Shown here piece by piece: positions 448 through 13,991 of a stretch of DNA of 64,000 bases; the stretch's first letter is position 1; each line of letters begins with the position of its first letter. The stretch is taken from assembly GCA_963732355.1 (NCBI GenBank), contig CAVSZD010000011.1:1645-65644 (forward strand), read 5' to 3'. The notes below the pieces were generated by a model, which made no database searches, was not told the origin of the DNA, and was given only the letters and a program-made list of their open reading frames with translations. The stretch comes from an uncultured Actinomycetota bacterium. GTDB taxonomy: Bacteria; Actinomycetota; Actinomycetes; S36-B12; UBA10799. Made by a program: the position numbers and the translations under genes.

Positions 448-575
448 TCAGAGCACCTTGTCCACCCATCGTGGTGTGTACCAGCCGCCGCGGTGCCAGC
501 CGACCTGGGTCAACCACGGCCACACCTGCTCCGGTGGCGCGTCCAAGGTGGCCGCATGGTGCTCGCGATCATTCA
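448..575 (-). pseudogene. Fragment of SRPBCC-like protein
   Basis: ATLDAPPEQVWPWLTQVGWHRGGWYTPRWVD resembles the N-terminal motif of actinobacterial SRPBCC proteins, but a stop follows almost immediately. Confidence 0.55.
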
Positions 576-736
576 TCGCCTGGGAGGTGCCGGGTCCGCT
601 CGGCTCTGGTTGATCCAGAAGTGCGGCCAAGGCGATAACCGACTCCGTAACCGGCCACAACCCCGCCGATCAGCAGCGGCGCGACCGAACGCCGATCCCA
701 ATTCACGCCGCCATGATAGGAATCTCGGGAGGCGAA

Positions 737-1537
737 TCAGCCAGCGAGTGTGCCGGCGAAAACCTGCCAGGCCAACAACGACTTCGCGACCAGGCTCAAC
801 GTGATGTACGTACGTTCCCCGGCAAGGTAGTCAGCCCAGCGCCCGACCTGCTTGTACTGCAGGTACTGGACCAGGGCGAAGACATTGAAGAAGAGGAACA
901 GCGACACGATGATCCCGTAGACGAAGCCTGGCGGTTCGGCTGAGGACGTCGAACCGGGAGCGACTACGAAGAACGCGATGATCAGCCACGGGACGATCCC
1001 CACCATGGATCCGAAGATGAACGGCAGGAACCCGCCGCCAGGCCTTTCGTAGTCCTCCTGCAACCAGCCGAAGAAGATCATCGCCGCGTTCACCGCGAAG
1101 ATCGCCGCGAGGGCAGCAACGTCGGTCAGACCCGTGATTTGGGCGATCAGCACGATCATCATCGACGAGGTGAGGGCGTACTCGACCCAGCGGGCGCGGT
1201 TGCGCTGACGTGCCAGATCCGCGGCATACCCCTTAGACCAGATCGTTGCGACGATCAGCAGCGCGATCCCGGACAGGGCCAGGAACCCAGCCACTCCCAG
1301 CCCGATCGGGGTATCCAGCAACGTGACCGGCGCACCCGGGGTGGTCCCGGGGGGTCCCTCGAGATAGGAGGCGGTGACCGGCAGGGTGAAGTCGTTGGAG
1401 AGCGCGAACACCGCCACCGCCTGTACGAGCAGGATCAGCCCGACCACGATGTTGTAGCGGCGTAGACGGGTCAATCGGCCTGGCTCGACGGCTTCAGGGG
1501 CTGGCGCGCCAGCGGTTGAGGTGCTCATGATCTCCAC
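737..1537 (-). CDS. heR: Heliorhodopsin (start may be ATG 1528)
   Basis: Seven hydrophobic segments; NDFTLPVTASYLEGPPG loop, RWVEY (counterion Glu), FGWLQE, GERTYITLSLVAK (retinal-binding Lys). Confidence 0.95.
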   Translation of the reverse strand: MEIMSTSTAGAPAPEAVEPGRLTRLRRYNIVVGLILLVQAVAVFALSNDFTLPVTASYLEGPPGTTPGAPVTLLDTPIGLGVAGFLALSGIALLIVATIWSKGYAADLARQRNRARWVEYALTSSMMIVLIAQITGLTDVAALAAIFAVNAAMIFFGWLQEDYERPGGGFLPFIFGSMVGIVPWLIIAFFVVAPGSTSSAEPPGFVYGIIVSLFLFFNVFALVQYLQYKQVGRWADYLAGERTYITLSLVAKSLLAWQVFAGTLAG

Positions 1538-3366: not shown

Positions 3367-4038
3367 ATGGCCCTGGCAGAGGCGTTCTCCTTCGACGATG
3401 TGGCTTTGGAACGTGACGGCCACCGCATCGTCGACGGAGTCAGTGACCACATCCACAAGGGCGCCACCACAGCAATCATCGGTGCCAGCGGCTCGGGCAA
3501 GTCCACCTTCCTGCGCCTGCTCAACCGCTTCGAGGAACCCACCGAGGGCAGGATCCGGCTGGATGGGCGCCCCCTGGAGTCCTACGACGTCCACGCCCTG
3601 CGCCGCCGGGTCGGTCTTGTGGCGCAACGACCGACAATGCTCACGCCCAGCGTCGGCCAGGAGGTTCGCGTCGCCTGTCCCGACCTCACCGATGCCGCAG
3701 TGCTGCAACTGCTGCAGCGGGTGGCGTTGCAGGACGTAGCGCTGGATCGAGCAACAACGACACTGTCCGGCGGTGAGCAGCAGCGCCTGGCCCTCGCCCG
3801 GTCACTGGCGGTCGCTCCGGACGTTCTGCTGCTGGACGAGCCCACGAGCGCATTGGATGAGCACTCGGCAGAGGCCGTGGACGACGTCATCCGATCGCTG
3901 GTCACAGAAGACCTGACTGTTGTTCTAGTCAGCCATGACCTGAACCGCGTTGTGGAGCTCGCTGACAAGGTTCTGGTCCTCGAAAGCGGCCGGTTGGTCG
4001 AACGCGGCGAGCCGGGAGACGTGCGGTATCTGCGATGA
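3367..4038 (+). CDS. ABC transporter ATP-binding protein (FetA/YbbL-like)
   Basis: Walker A GASGSGKS, LSGGEQQR signature, LLLDEPT Walker B; ATGA-coupled to permease. Confidence 0.9.
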   Translation: MALAEAFSFDDVALERDGHRIVDGVSDHIHKGATTAIIGASGSGKSTFLRLLNRFEEPTEGRIRLDGRPLESYDVHALRRRVGLVAQRPTMLTPSVGQEVRVACPDLTDAAVLQLLQRVALQDVALDRATTTLSGGEQQRLALARSLAVAPDVLLLDEPTSALDEHSAEAVDDVIRSLVTEDLTVVLVSHDLNRVVELADKVLVLESGRLVERGEPGDVRYLR

Positions 4039-4817
4039 CTGCCTCCCCTCAGATCCCCGACTGGCTCGGAGTCGCCGCATCAGTGCTGCTGGTGGGCATT
4101 GCCGTGCTGGCATCGTCCTGGGCCCGGTTGGGCCTCACGCGCGATCTCGTCTGGGCAGCCTTGCGCGCATTCGTCCAACTTCTCGCTGTCGGCGCTCTGC
4201 TCACGATCCTGTTCGATCGCGCCGGGCTACTCGGGGCCTTGGCCTGGGTGACAGGGATGGTCGTGATCGCAGGATTCGTTGCCGCCGGACGGTCCCCCGA
4301 ACTACCTCGGCGACGCCCCACCGCCTGGATCGCCGTGGGCGCCGGCGTGGCGACCACGTTGGGTGTCCTGCTGGTACTGGGCGTCATCGAGCCGACACCT
4401 TCGGTGGTGGTACCGGTCGGGGGCATGGTCGTCAGCGGCTCTATGACTGCCACCAACCTGACGATGCGACGACTGGCCGACATCGCCCACCAGCAGCGTC
4501 CCGACATCGAAGCGCGCCTGGCCCTGGGTATGACCGCGAGCGAGGCGATGACCCCGCACCTGCGGCAGGGCGTCAAGACCGCCCTTCTGCCCGCGATCGA
4601 CTCCACCAAGGTCGTTGGCCTTATCGCCCTGCCGGGAGCGATGACGGGACTGATCCTGGCTGGCGTGGAACCCATCGTCGCGATCCGCTACCAGATCGTC
4701 GTCATGTACATGCTCCTCGCGGCTGCGGCTGTGAGCGCGATTGTGGCGGCGCACCTGACCCGCAGGGCGCTGTTCGATAACGCCGACCGCCTTTGCCGGG
4801 TCGCTGCCCCCAAGTAG
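4035..4817 (+). CDS. fetB: ABC transporter permease, FetB/UPF0014 family
   Basis: RAFVQLLAVG, IEARLALG, GLIALPGAMTGLILAG, AIRYQIVVM motifs. Confidence 0.85.
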   Translation: MTASPQIPDWLGVAASVLLVGIAVLASSWARLGLTRDLVWAALRAFVQLLAVGALLTILFDRAGLLGALAWVTGMVVIAGFVAAGRSPELPRRRPTAWIAVGAGVATTLGVLLVLGVIEPTPSVVVPVGGMVVSGSMTATNLTMRRLADIAHQQRPDIEARLALGMTASEAMTPHLRQGVKTALLPAIDSTKVVGLIALPGAMTGLILAGVEPIVAIRYQIVVMYMLLAAAAVSAIVAAHLTRRALFDNADRLCRVAAPK

Positions 4818-6847: not shown

Positions 6848-7396
6848 ATGATCAAGCCAACCGCCGTGCTCGTGTTCGCGATGTCCCTGACGCTGGCACC
6901 CGCCGCCGCAGCCAAGAGCAACCCCGAGAACGACAAGCTTCCCCCCACCGCGAACGCGGGGTACTTCCTCGGCTATCCCAGCCCCACCTATTCCTGGCAC
7001 GGCTGCACGAAGACCGCAACGGCACGGACAGCGTCTTCCACCCCCATCGCTGGCGAGCCGGACCTCATCAAGGGCAGCAAGCAGAAGGCGGTCACGTTCA
7101 CGATTCGCACCACCGCGCCTTACGTGTCGTGGCAGGTCAAGGACGGCTGGAGGATCTGCGGGGTGCAGGTGAGCGCGGTCTTGAATAACGACAATGTCAG
7201 TTCGATGCTGCTGGCCGAAGCCGGCTACACCTCAGGGCCGAAGAAGGGCTCGACGTCGAAGTCGGGAACCGAGACGATCCAGGTGACCATCCCGACTAAG
7301 GGGATCGGCAGTGCGGGCTTCGAGGAGTTCGAAGGGCAGACCTTCTCCATGCGCTCCATCCGTCAGGTCGCCGTGTTCGTCAGGAAGGCGAACTGA
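6848..7396 (+). CDS. Secreted hypothetical protein
   Basis: Signal peptide MIKPTAVLVFAMSLTLAPAAAA; beta-rich mature part with two Cys; typical codon usage. Confidence 0.75.
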   Translation: MIKPTAVLVFAMSLTLAPAAAAKSNPENDKLPPTANAGYFLGYPSPTYSWHGCTKTATARTASSTPIAGEPDLIKGSKQKAVTFTIRTTAPYVSWQVKDGWRICGVQVSAVLNNDNVSSMLLAEAGYTSGPKKGSTSKSGTETIQVTIPTKGIGSAGFEEFEGQTFSMRSIRQVAVFVRKAN

Positions 7397-7621
7397 ACCT
7401 CGCCGATCGATAGGGCATCAGCGGCTCAGACACCCTCACCCAGGATGAACTCAGCGAATTCCTGGGTACGGCACGGAGTTGGCGTTTGGTCGCCCATTGT
7501 TGCGAAGTCACTGGGACAGGCTGTGCGGACCTGTTCATCACTCTTAAGGCGGGTCAAAATCGATCCGATGCACCCCGCGGCGAAACCGGCACTCGCGCGT
7601 CCGGAGGCGTAGCCTGCCAGA

Positions 7622-9353
7622 ATGACGCCGCCACCGGACGCCGACCGCGGACTGCGCTCAGTTGTGCGCCGCGCCGCCGAGGGCGCACGCGACGTCGCCG
7701 ATAGTGCTTTCGACGCAACGGTGGGCCGTGTCGGTCATTCCGTGGGCGAGGTGGCCCTTGAGGCGACAAATGCGACCGCGCAGCAGGTCATCGAGGACCT
7801 TGAGCCGTACCTGATCGCAGAAGCGATTCCCAGAATCGTGGAGGGCATCACCCCTTACCTCACTGACGAACTGGTTCCCGAAGTCCTGGACGGTCTCACC
7901 AAGCACCTGACAACGGTGACCGTCCCTGTGGTGGTGGACGGTGTGTCTGAGCACCTGGTTGAAGTCACGGTGCCCGAGGTCGTCGCAGGGGTCACGCCTC
8001 GACTCGTGGATGACTTGTTGCCCCGTCTGCTGAGCGACATGCAGCCGTACCTGCAGCAACAACTCGTGCCGCAGATTGTGGACGGCTTGACTCCGTATCT
8101 CGAGCAGACGATCGCACCCCAACTCGTCGACGCCCTCATGCCCAAGATCCGCGACCAAGTCGCCCCCGACCTGCTCGACGCCCTCATGCCCCGCATCGAG
8201 AACGACATCGCACCCCAACTCGTCGACGCCCTCATGCCCAAGATCCGCGACCAAGTCGCCCCCGACCTACTCGACGCCCTCATGCCCCGCATCCAAGAAC
8301 GACATCGCACCCCAACTCGTCGACGCCCTCATGCCCAAGATCCGCGACCAAGTCGCCCCCGACCTGCTCGACGCGCTCATGCCCCGCATCCAGAACGACA
8401 TCGCACCCCAACTCGTCGACGCCCTCATGCCCAAGATCCGCGACCAAGTCGCCCCCGACCTGCTCGACGCCCTCATGCCCCGCATCGAGAACGACATCGC
8501 ACCCCAACTCGTCGACGCCCTCATGCCCAAGATCCGCCAGGAGGTTGTGCCGCAGGTACTTGACGACATCGTGGACGACCCGCGTATCCGGGATCTGATC
8601 CGGGAGCAGAGCCAGGGCCTCTTCCTCGACGCGATCGAGGGATTCCGTGGGACCTTGGCGGGTGTCGATTCGCTGGTGGACGGCGTGGGACGACGTGTGC
8701 TGCGACGGCCGCCGCGTCCCGTGGCTGAGACTGCCCTGGAACTCGTACTCGCCGAAACATCCCCTGATGACACCAAGCCCGTGCGACTGGCCCTGGATGA
8801 CCTGTCGAATCAACGGGCCATTTGGCGGGCCTTGCCCGCGCCACCCGCTCCGCCCGGGCGGAGTTTCACCTACGCCGGAGCTGTGACTCGGCTATTGGGC
8901 TTGGGGATTGATCTTCTCGTCGTGGGCTACCTCAACACGGTCCTCTTTTCAACGATTGCCGGCGTGCTGGATTCGTTGTTCTCGGGGTCGCCGCCGGCAT
9001 GGCTGGCGCTCACCCTCGTCACCATTGCCGCTGCGGTCATACCCACCTACCTGGGTTTCTGTTACTGGGCGCTCGGCAGGTCTTTGGGAATGGGCATCGT
9101 GGGGATCCGCGTGTGCACCCCGGATGGGAGACGGCCCGGATTTGTGCGAGCAATGGTGCGCGCTTGGGTGGGGATGATCGGGCTGGTCTTCTGGATCGTG
9201 ACGGGTGCTGTCTCACTCTTCGACGCCAAACGACGCAGCCTCTGGGACATGCTGGTGCACACCGAGGTGCGCTACTCCGTTCCGGAGACCCAGCAGCGCC
9301 GCCATGTCCGTGACGCCGTCCAAGAACAGCGAGAAGCTGCCGGGGCCTCGTAG
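7622..9353 (+). CDS. RDD-family membrane protein with long N-terminal 16-aa repeat region (frameshift ~8296)
   Basis: ORFs 7622-8563 and 8331-9353 join if the extra A in ATCCAAGAAC is removed (other copy ATCCAGAAC); RDD motifs YAGAVTRLLGLGID, GRSLGMGIVGIRV, RRSLWDMLVHTEV. Confidence 0.8.
8111..8540 (+). repeat. Coding tandem repeat, 96-bp unit x ~4.5
   Basis: Units start at 8111, 8207, 8304, 8400, 8496; encode IAPQLVDALMPKIRDQ-VAPDLLDALMPRIEND. Confidence 0.95.
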
Positions 9354-9357
9354 CCGT

Positions 9358-9429
9358 TGGTTAGAGGTTGTGCTGTTGGTTAGAGAATCCACGCGTTGTT
9401 TCTCTAACCAACAGCACAACCTCTAACCA
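9358..9429. repeat. REP/REPIN-like palindrome, copy 1
   Basis: Perfect 30-bp inverted repeat TGGTTAGAGGTTGTGCTGTTGGTTAGAGAA with 12-nt loop; second copy at 28368. Confidence 0.9.
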
Positions 9430-9651
9430 GGACGGCGGGCCGCGCGGCCGGGACCAGAACGACGACCAACTCGGCCCTCCCTTCGACATCACCGACGACG
9501 AGCAGTCCCGCCTTCCAGCGTGGCGCGTCCGACGACCGGGCCGGATCCCGTGCCGGTGGCGTCGGTATCCGTGTTGGGAAGGACGGCTCCACCTAAGGGG
9601 GGTGTTCCATGCGCATCACATCATCACTGGGTCTTCCCAATGGCTGTCAGC

Positions 9652-9684
9652 GACAGGTGACCCGCGGGTCGAGGGTCACCTGTC
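9652..9684 (-). terminator. Hairpin, probable terminator of 9699-10259
   Basis: 12-bp perfect stem GACAGGTGACCC/GGGTCACCTGTC about 15 nt past the stop; no U-tract. Confidence 0.55.
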
Positions 9685-9698
9685 CCTGGAAAGGCCGG

Positions 9699-10259
9699 TC
9701 AGCAGCCGTCCAGCGACCAACTCTTGATTGGCTTCTTGATGCTCTTGGCACGCACCGCGAACCACGAGATGGTCTTGTTCACGCTGTCCACGTACACGTC
9801 GAGCCAGCCAGCCTTTCCGCGAGTCGAGTAGATCCGCCAGCCCTTGCCGGGCAGGTAGGGATTGGCCAAGAAAGAGGTCCTCTCGAGGCCGGGATAGTTC
9901 GCCTTGGCAGCCGTGAAGGAGTCCTCCGTGCGCAAACCCTTGGTGGTCACTCTGCCCTGCCATGCGACGACCTTGCGGTCCTTGCGCCGCCAATCGGGGC
10001 CGGCACCGACTGCGTCCACTCGGCCGCCGCACGCCGGGTTCTTCGCCAAGTAGTTCAGGGAGCGCGCTCGCGCGACGGTGGTCTTGCCCATCGTCAAGGG
10101 GCCGACGCGGCCCGGCGACAGCACAGCCTCACATGAGTCCGACCATTGTGGGTACCCGTCCGGGTTGTATGCGTACGTACATTCGGTGGCACTCGCGGGC
10201 GCCCCCGAGAGCAAGCCCATTGCGAATGCGGCAGTGGCTACGCAGACAACGGTGTTCAT
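9699..10259 (-). CDS. Secreted hypothetical protein (basic, Cys-containing)
   Basis: SD GAGGGAGAGG, signal peptide ending PASA; K/R-rich mature region. Confidence 0.75.
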   Translation of the reverse strand: MNTVVCVATAAFAMGLLSGAPASATECTYAYNPDGYPQWSDSCEAVLSPGRVGPLTMGKTTVARARSLNYLAKNPACGGRVDAVGAGPDWRRKDRKVVAWQGRVTTKGLRTEDSFTAAKANYPGLERTSFLANPYLPGKGWRIYSTRGKAGWLDVYVDSVNKTISWFAVRAKSIKKPIKSWSLDGC

Positions 10260-10363
10260 CGCCTCTCCCTCACGCGACAAACCCTACGGCACCCTCTGCG
10301 GCTCAACGATCGCTGCTCACGACCTCAACCAGCGCAGGGTGGCGTGATCCCCTAACGGCCTGT

Positions 10364-12523
<2,160 letters not shown>

Positions 12524-12650
12524 TGGCGCTTCATGATTAGCAGGGTGGTTGTCGCGTGGCCCCGGGCAGGCACGAGGTTAGAGACTTGCCGTGACGGCGT
12601 CGCCCCCCAACCGACCTTCACGAGGCGACTAGCCCTACACCCCAGATGCC

Positions 12651-13917
12651 TCAGCCGCTCGGTGTCGCCCCGGTCGGCGCCCCCGCGGGGTCACCGCCGG
12701 GTACCGCCGAAGCTCCGTACAGAGCGGCGATCACTGTCTTGCCAAGGACCACTGCGGCGTTCTCGCCATCCACCGGCGAGGCGGACAGGTTGGCGAAGAT
12801 GATGATCGTGTTCTGGTCCTCGGAGTCGCGCGCCATGAACGATGAGAAGCCGGGTAGTTGCCCATCGTGGCCGAACAGGTTCGGGGCGAACTGCGCGATA
12901 CCCAAGCCATAACTCACCGGTGCTCCCGGAGCGATCGGTTGAATGCTATCCATCCGGGTTTTCTGCATCTCTGCATCCAGCAGGCCGCCGTCGACAAGCG
13001 CGTCAACGTAGGTGGCCAACTCGTCGGCCGTCGAGATCGCGCCGCCCGCGGTCCATGCCCAGGAAGGGTTGGCATCGGTGTAGTCGATCGGCTTCAGCGA
13101 GCCGTCCAGCGCCGCCGACAAATCAGCCTTCGGCACCGCATACGACTCGATGGTTTCCACGTTCGTGCCGAACTGGTATCCCTGCGGGTGGGGATCGGGC
13201 AAGCGTCGACTCGTCGGGCAGCGGCAGCGCTGTGCGGGTCAGGCCCAGCGGCTTGTAGATCCGTTCCTCGAAGGCCTGCGTGGCCGACATCCCGGTGAGC
13301 TTCTCGATGACCACGCCCAGAAGGACGATGTTGGTGTTGGAGTAGTCGTACTCCTGGCCGGGCTTCCCGTTCTGCTTCTGCGAGAACGCGATGTCCAACA
13401 GTTCCTGTGGCGTCCAGGCCTTCTGCGGCTCTTTGTCCAGCGTCTCGTTGAACTTCTTGTCAAAGGTGTAGCTGAACAAGCCGCTGCGCATCTCCGACAG
13501 GTTCGCGATGGTGATCTCGTCGCCGTTGGGCACACCTTTCACGTACTTCGAGATCGGGTCGTCGAGGGCGAGCTTGCCCTCTTGGGCCAATTGCAGGATC
13601 ACGGTCGAGGTCATGGTCTTGGTGTTGCTGCCGATCCGGAAGGTGTCGTCCAGGCTCACCGGAACCTCCTGCTCCAGATCCGCGGTCCCGAATGTCGCCT
13701 GCCAGTCCCCTTGGTCGCGCGACCTGATGAGGATGCCGACCCCTGGGATCGCGTTGGCCTTCATGACCTCGGGGATCTGCTGTTCGAGGCTGGCCTGATA
13801 CGCCGGAGCGGACGCGGCCGGCGAGGCCGACGCATCCGGGTCACTGCCCGAGGAGCACCCCGCCACCACGGCCAACGCAACGAACGCTCCAACGATGATC
13901 GAGTGCTTGCGACGCAT
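12651..13917 (-). CDS. Serine hydrolase (beta-lactamase/DD-peptidase family) lipoprotein (frameshift ~13200)
   Basis: Lipobox VAGC; SxxK (GSNTK), YSN, GHDG motifs split across ORFs 13123-13968 and 12651-13202. Confidence 0.85.
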
Positions 13918-13991
13918 GTAGAACCTCACATTTATGGCGGATGAGACCGAAGTGGTGAGTCTATCCACACGGATTCGTCAGGAGACAACTC

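Follow-up and report, generated by a model that had tools for sequence, protein, structure and literature searches.

His23 and His80 are central to the current QM/MM and crystallographic mechanistic models of heliorhodopsins. In the available text of PMC7049168, the pair is described as highly conserved and as lining the water-filled Schiff-base cavity of 48C12, where it matters for proton transfer without being the sole acceptor, and Ser111 is reported to stabilise the counterion. According to the accessible portion of Chazan et al. (10.1101/2021.02.16.431466), the natural protein HULAa30F3 from a Dehalococcoidia fosmid carries H25L/H81L (562 nm), accumulates little M, forms a large and long-lived O, and behaves like the H23F/H82F mutant of TaHeR, for whose reduced M accumulation the same source cites Shihoya et al. 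(2019). A Geodermatophilaceae preprint from 2024, in the part available, still cites HULAa30F3 as its example with leucine at both sites (10.1101/2024.05.16.594530), and these were the only reports of Leu/Leu heliorhodopsins that we found in the open literature. The original prediction for the gene studied here had listed a common and already characterised double-leucine subfamily among the outcomes that would count against it, and as to characterisation it is largely overtaken by the published HULAa30F3 measurements. The subtype is thus already known, and it is the particular actinobacterial Leu/Leu clade that appears new: in the open literature including the main texts of preprints (excluding subscription journals and preprint supplements), we found no description of such a clade, of co-switching at position 19, or of the recurrence of the leucine pair.

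The gene lies in the window, the 64,000-nucleotide stretch of an uncultured Actinomycetota genome that was analysed here, and its key codons are listed in Table 1. The genome (3.53 Mb in 17 contigs, 97% complete) encodes one heliorhodopsin, and its reading frame is uninterrupted. Gene callers begin the protein at the ATG at 1528 (residue 4), yielding the 263-aa form P0002, and this ATG is likely the true start. The open reading frame matched the Pfam Heliorhodopsin profile PF18761 from position 1 to 242 of 242 (E = 2.4e-94; 315.6 bits against a cut-off of 26.7), and in a phmmer search against PDB chains its residues 22 to 264 aligned to 48C12 (6su3; E = 8.1e-91). Across query residues 22 to 98, which span both histidine sites, the alignment has no gap, so that Leu36 corresponds to His23 and Leu93 to His80 of 48C12. 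The motifs RWVEY (E119, equivalent to E107), GER (E241, equivalent to E230), and SLVAK (K252, equivalent to K241) are intact, and YALTS stands in place of the YSLSS of 48C12 (A121 for S109 and T123 for S111).

These results agree with the original prediction, which had identified the open reading frame as a heliorhodopsin having leucine in place of the two conserved histidines, had named the same intact motifs and the YALTS change, and had pointed out that two CTG codons are not single-base errors. It had also raised the possibility that the histidines align elsewhere, and the gap-free pairing with 48C12 settles this in favour of the two leucines. By every sequence criterion applied, the window protein is a heliorhodopsin, and since it resembles 48C12 closely along its full length (E = 8e-91), the inverted topology with a cytoplasmic N-terminus is predicted for it as well. 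Close relatives are already annotated as “heliorhodopsin HeR” in public records, and for genome annotation the gene is an ordinary one. That both leucines stem from misalignment or from a sequencing or assembly artefact has a negligible probability: besides the gap-free alignment over both sites and the two base changes that would turn a histidine codon into CTG, 65 independent clusters and the genomes of 21 species show the same residues, and we found no evidence in favour of an artefact, which is thereby refuted. A scan of positions 400 to 1800 returned no promoter-like sites and two terminator-like sites, both inside coding sequence and at chance level, and a search of sequencing runs listed no RNA run and no run with at least half of the sampled words.

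Table 1. Positions in the window of the heliorhodopsin gene, its key codons, and the neighbouring transporter pair
Feature	Position	Strand	Remarks
Heliorhodopsin gene	737..1537	(-)	266 aa from GTG at 1537; stop codon 737-739
Leu36, codon CTG	1430..1432 (+ strand 'cag')	(-)	His23 of 48C12, helix A; codon read and alignment
Leu93, codon CTG	1259..1261 (+ strand 'cag')	(-)	His80 of 48C12, helix B; codon read and alignment
Val32, codon GTC	1442..1444	(-)	Ala19 of 48C12; co-switches with the Leu pair family-wide
Gly90, codon GGG	1268..1270	(-)	Ala77 of 48C12; clade-fixed
Gly103, codon GGG	1229..1231	(-)	Arg91 of 48C12, adjoins Tyr92 (own Tyr104); clade-fixed
Thr123, codon ACC	1169..1171	(-)	Ser111 of 48C12; clade-fixed
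Glu119, codon GAG	1181..1183	(-)	Schiff-base counterion, Glu107 of 48C12; kept
Lys252, codon AAG	782..784	(-)	Retinal-binding lysine, Lys241 of 48C12; kept
ABC ATPase and UPF0014 permease (FetA/FetB-like pair)	3367-4817	(+)	1.8 kb from the heliorhodopsin gene

Leucine at both positions is a fixed trait of the actinobacterial clade around the window protein. We sampled the 120 closest 90%-identity clusters to the query, and all 65 clusters that were at least 75% identical to it and had both sites aligned were Leu/Leu. Two more matches at this level of identity (≥75%) were N-terminally truncated and had leucine at the second site, and the other 53 clusters, all at 71% identity or less, were His/His. 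Species-representative genomes gave the same picture, with 21 Leu/Leu and 58 His/His proteins among 80 loci and one frameshifted copy of the Leu/Leu type (L061); the Leu/Leu relatives are labelled as uncultured Actinomycetes, “Candidatus Nanopelagicales,” or Dermatophilaceae MAGs. The leucine codons vary synonymously across 22 clade genes (CTG in 17, CTC in 4, and TTG in 1 at site 23; CTG in 19, CTA in 2, and CTT in 1 at site 80). Together with pairwise dN/dS values that have a median of 0.128 and a maximum of 0.275 (231 of 231 pairs), this variation indicates that the gene and both leucines are old and under purifying selection.

The same values speak against a decaying or retinal-free relic that lost its histidines under relaxed selection, as do the intact frame of the window gene and the invariance of the retinal lysine, the counterion, and 19 further functional positions in all 64 of 64 clade members. 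Some relatives do carry damaged Leu/Leu-type genes, which are frameshifted, split, or interrupted by TGA (L061; G037:C3:338985-339788; G018:C6:179400-180186), and the variable gene contexts would also suit a gene in decay. The broken copies reflect either fairly frequent gene loss or indel errors in long-read assemblies, and they indicate that the gene is dispensable in some lineages. Based on the selection estimates and the invariant sites, we regard a relic as very improbable.

The columns that cleanly separate the 65 clade members from the 53 His/His neighbours are A19V, H23L, A77G, H80L, R91G, S111T, and V114M, with further separating columns at 9, 102, 168, 175, and 214 (48C12 numbering). 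Invariant in all 64 members are N16, Q26, S76, Y92, N101, R104, W105, E107, Y108, S112, N138, E149, Q213, Q216, Y226, E230, S237, K241, S242, W246, and Q247; roles for such residues (Schiff-base region, cavity, Glu149 region, and the Gln26/Ser242/Trp246 cluster) were taken from the available text of PMC7049168. By helical periodicity, residue 19 probably shares a face of helix A with Asn16 and His23, in which case the cavity wall would be hydrophobic on one side, with the remaining network retained. The original prediction had spoken of a subtype with a rewired network and possibly a different signalling output. Its first part stands, since the subtype is real and the change coordinated (A19V, A77G, R91G, and S111T are fixed together with the leucine pair), but the second finds no backing in a clade with no neighbour gene conserved across it and with its other functional residues invariant.

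Leu/Leu heliorhodopsins are, moreover, a natural and common subtype of the family. Among 150 representatives at 50% identity, His/His was found in 73, Leu/Leu in 6, Phe/His in 8, Tyr/His in 5, and Leu/His in 4, the rest being gapped or singletons. When one of the Leu/Leu representatives served as the seed of a search, all 119 of 119 matches were Leu/Leu with Val19, together with Ala77 and Ser111, and the named members of this group are Chloroflexota, Dehalococcoidia, or Dehalococcoidales. A third seed also gave 119 matches, with Leu/Leu in 64 (52 Val/Leu/Leu, 11 Thr/Leu/Leu, and 1 Ala/Leu/Leu at residues 19/23/80), many of which also have Gly77 and Thr111, and with 47 Met/His/His, 3 Val/His/His, 2 Ala/His/His, 2 Val/Phe/His, and 1 partial protein as the remainder; because such samples were seeded by similarity to Leu/Leu proteins, they show breadth and not frequency. 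The original prediction had listed a common double-leucine variant as an outcome that would count against it, and these counts largely bear that outcome out. Over 408 rows, 243 were Leu/Leu, 146 His/His, and 19 other, mostly with Phe, Tyr, or Leu at 23 and His80 kept, and leucine at 80 without leucine at 23 occurred in none of the 408. The histidine pair is conserved, yet it is no defining feature of heliorhodopsins.

Two of three trees placed the window clade and the Dehalococcoidia Leu/Leu group apart. In a quick IQ-TREE of 98 rows, His/His actinobacterial proteins and the window clade came together under a starred node (98), and the Dehalococcoidia Leu/Leu group formed a separate starred clade. 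After removal of the trait columns, a tree of 50 rows recovered both clades (support 98 and 100) and did not recover their mutual relation, and on this 50-row subset a single Leu/Leu clade was not rejected by the AU test (log-likelihood difference, 4.1; p = 0.379). We also built a FastTree from 408 full-length rows, out of 432 of suitable length, leaving out columns 19, 23, 77, 80, and 111. At least 7 changes of the Leu/Leu label are required on this tree, the window clade (64 rows, support 98) is nested among His/His rows (support 85 and 96), and the Dehalococcoidia group is sister to the whole 122-row set that holds the window clade (support 97). An independent origin of leucine at both sites in the window clade is likely, although not proven, and the recurrence of the pair in the family as a whole has good support on the fast tree only.

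Position 19 changes along with the pair. Across six independent pairs on starred branches, it co-switched in a mean of 5.7 (median sign-test p = 0.031), and Thr111 and Gly77 did so in means of 4.3 and 3.3; the linked change at position 19 makes a concrete prediction for mutagenesis. A tentative reading, to which we give somewhat less than even credence, is that the cavity wall exists in two discrete and repeatedly interconverted states, one polar (Ala or Met at 19, His23, and His80) and one hydrophobic (Val or Thr at 19, Leu23, and Leu80, often with Gly77 and Thr111). Switches between them would number at least six or seven, with the hydrophobic form moving between actinobacterial families and substituting for the canonical gene from other loci. 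The switch appears nearly all-or-none, given that Leu80 was never found without Leu23. If this reading is true, heliorhodopsins would have two selected photochemical modes, M-forming and M-poor, as opposed to one mechanism with rare exceptions, and the window clade would be an independent natural replicate.

We sampled 201 genomes evenly across the order, and a heliorhodopsin matched in 133 of them at E ≤ 1e-20. Matches at 76% identity or more occurred in three families, and all 17 of the 17 that we fetched were Val/Leu/Leu/Thr. Thirteen other genomes of the window's genus comprised 4 with an intact Leu/Leu gene, 1 with a broken gene of this type, 3 with His/His, and 5 with no match, and the window's own genome is the fifth in the genus with an intact Leu/Leu gene. 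The His/His proteins of the genus (3 genomes) have the canonical Ala/His/His/Ser and are 59 to 63% identical to the query. Their three loci (L107, L108, and L109, compared with the window) are mutually syntenic and mark a conserved locus, and the Leu/Leu genes of the genus are found in three other contexts that show no synteny with it. Identity to the query does not follow genus boundaries, being 84% for one same-genus genome and 88 to 91% for members of another family, which is compatible with lateral movement of the Leu/Leu gene. Separately, one genome of the order has, as its second heliorhodopsin, a protein (L112; G154:C4:37830-38780) with glycine in place of the counterion (RWVGY versus RWVEY) that keeps His23, His80, and the retinal lysine.

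The neighbours of the gene in the window are an alpha/beta hydrolase in divergent transcription, an SRPBCC protein, the FetA/FetB-like ABC pair, and GlpD, and the only relatives that share them are the two nearest ones, at 97% and 95% identity. Of these two, L002 keeps the ABC pair beside the heliorhodopsin, and L001 shows neither of its genes. Across 22 clade loci, with the heliorhodopsin and overlapping frames set aside, no ORF family was found in more than 4, and with no neighbour conserved across the clade we rejected the gene neighbourhood as evidence on function. Immediately downstream of the heliorhodopsin gene are a 70-aa ORF (window 448-660, minus strand) and one of 178 aa that includes a signal-peptide-like stretch (L086 1531-2067, minus strand), both without a Pfam match and found only in the closest relatives. 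A PIN-domain (VapC-like) gene lies at the start of the contig, upstream of the window and 1.7 kb from the heliorhodopsin (L086 187-642, plus strand). Elsewhere in the window, a beta-lactamase-family (PF00144) gene (12651-13968, minus strand) appears split into two overlapping ORFs, 13123-13968 covering profile positions 2-189 and 12651-13202 covering 208-321, probably through a frameshift or an assembly error.

The distribution of the gene bears on whether the Leu/Leu clade has taken on another molecular function, with a different partner or a transport activity, to which its six coordinated changes would be adapted. Joint fixation of six positions around the cavity and counterion could be understood in this way, and the repeated appearance of the leucine pair, at least seven times on the 408-row tree, points to selection for a state of its own. 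In a sister family, two genomes (G026 and G186) have a Leu/Leu-type gene alongside a second, distant His/His heliorhodopsin (47% identity to the query), as would fit non-redundant roles, but in the window's genus the two types occur in separate genomes and in none of those sampled together, which fits interchangeable ones. The 22 clade loci indicate no partner, every other residue of 48C12 with an assigned role is invariant in the clade, and HULAa30F3, in the accessible portion of its report, keeps the long-lived O typical of sensor-like heliorhodopsins. Based on these observations, we consider a different function unlikely and a light-sensing heliorhodopsin the better reading.

The genome offers a possible source of chromophore. 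A carotenoid cluster (L114, G000:C10:314000-330000; about 6958-12810) encodes crtE (polyprenyl synthetase), a crtI-like phytoene-desaturase-like amine oxidase, and crtB (phytoene synthase), as well as two small adjacent ORFs with lycopene-cyclase domains that scored 25.7 and 26.6 bits, just below the 27-bit cut-off. Two RPE65-family carotenoid oxygenases are encoded on contig C6. Profile searches for Blh (PF15461) and type-1 rhodopsin (PF01036) had no matches in this genome, and control genomes were equally silent. It is plausible that the chromophore is supplied from the organism's own genome.

Taking the evidence together, we think that the window gene probably encodes a functional, histidine-less heliorhodopsin photoreceptor of an actinobacterial clade, poor in M and with a long-lived O. 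It would be an inverted seven-helix retinal protein in which the cavity face formed by Ala19, His23, and His80 is replaced by Val/Leu/Leu, with Gly77, Gly91, and Thr111 in addition. Lys252 is predicted to bind retinal through a protonated Schiff base whose counterion is Glu119. After light absorption, the Schiff-base proton would have no histidine pair to receive it and may stay on Glu119 or a nearby water. With the pair missing as a proton destination, the deprotonated M would be expected to accumulate little, and by analogy with HULAa30F3 and TaHeR H23F/H82F a long-lived O would dominate the photocycle; the absorption maximum is probably red-shifted, as the HULAa30F3 analogy suggests. The protein would act as a light sensor. 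Should the window clade also prove to have a long-lived O and little M, the signalling state does not depend on the histidine pair.

Compared with 48C12 (PDB 6su3, 6su4, 6uh3, and 9ljj; subfamily 1/branch A), the query has the same length and loops and keeps N16, S76, Y92, N101, R104, E107, Y108, E149, E230, S237, and K241. The residues Ala19, His23, Ala77, His80, Arg91, and Ser111 of 48C12 are replaced in the query by Val, Leu, Gly, Leu, Gly, and Thr. TaHeR H23F/H82F resembles the query in having hydrophobic residues for both histidines, but the mutant, as described in the accessible portion of Chazan et al., is engineered and archaeal, has phenylalanine and not leucine, and lacks compensating changes at 19, 77, 91, and 111.

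The nearest counterpart is HULAa30F3, which in the accessible portion of its report is, like the query, natural and has leucine for both conserved histidines. On taxonomy and numbering it would belong to the Dehalococcoidia Leu/Leu group, in which 101 rows have the two leucines at positions 25 and 81 of their own numbering, the H25 and H81 of the paper. This group shares with the query Val19 and the retention of all other cavity residues, and a member is 61% identical to it. The group has Ala77, Trp91, Ser111, and Phe109, whereas the window clade has Gly77, Gly91, Thr111, and Ala109, as well as M114, which is absent from the Dehalococcoidia group. Since residue 111 touches the counterion, the spectrum and kinetics could differ from those of HULAa30F3, and Thr123 at the counterion and Gly103 beside Tyr104 could shift colour and kinetics away from it. 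By its residue pattern, the window clade can be classed with HULAa30F3, which alone among Leu/Leu heliorhodopsins has been characterised, and it forms a second natural lineage, well populated and probably independent, without the histidine pair and with compensating changes of its own.
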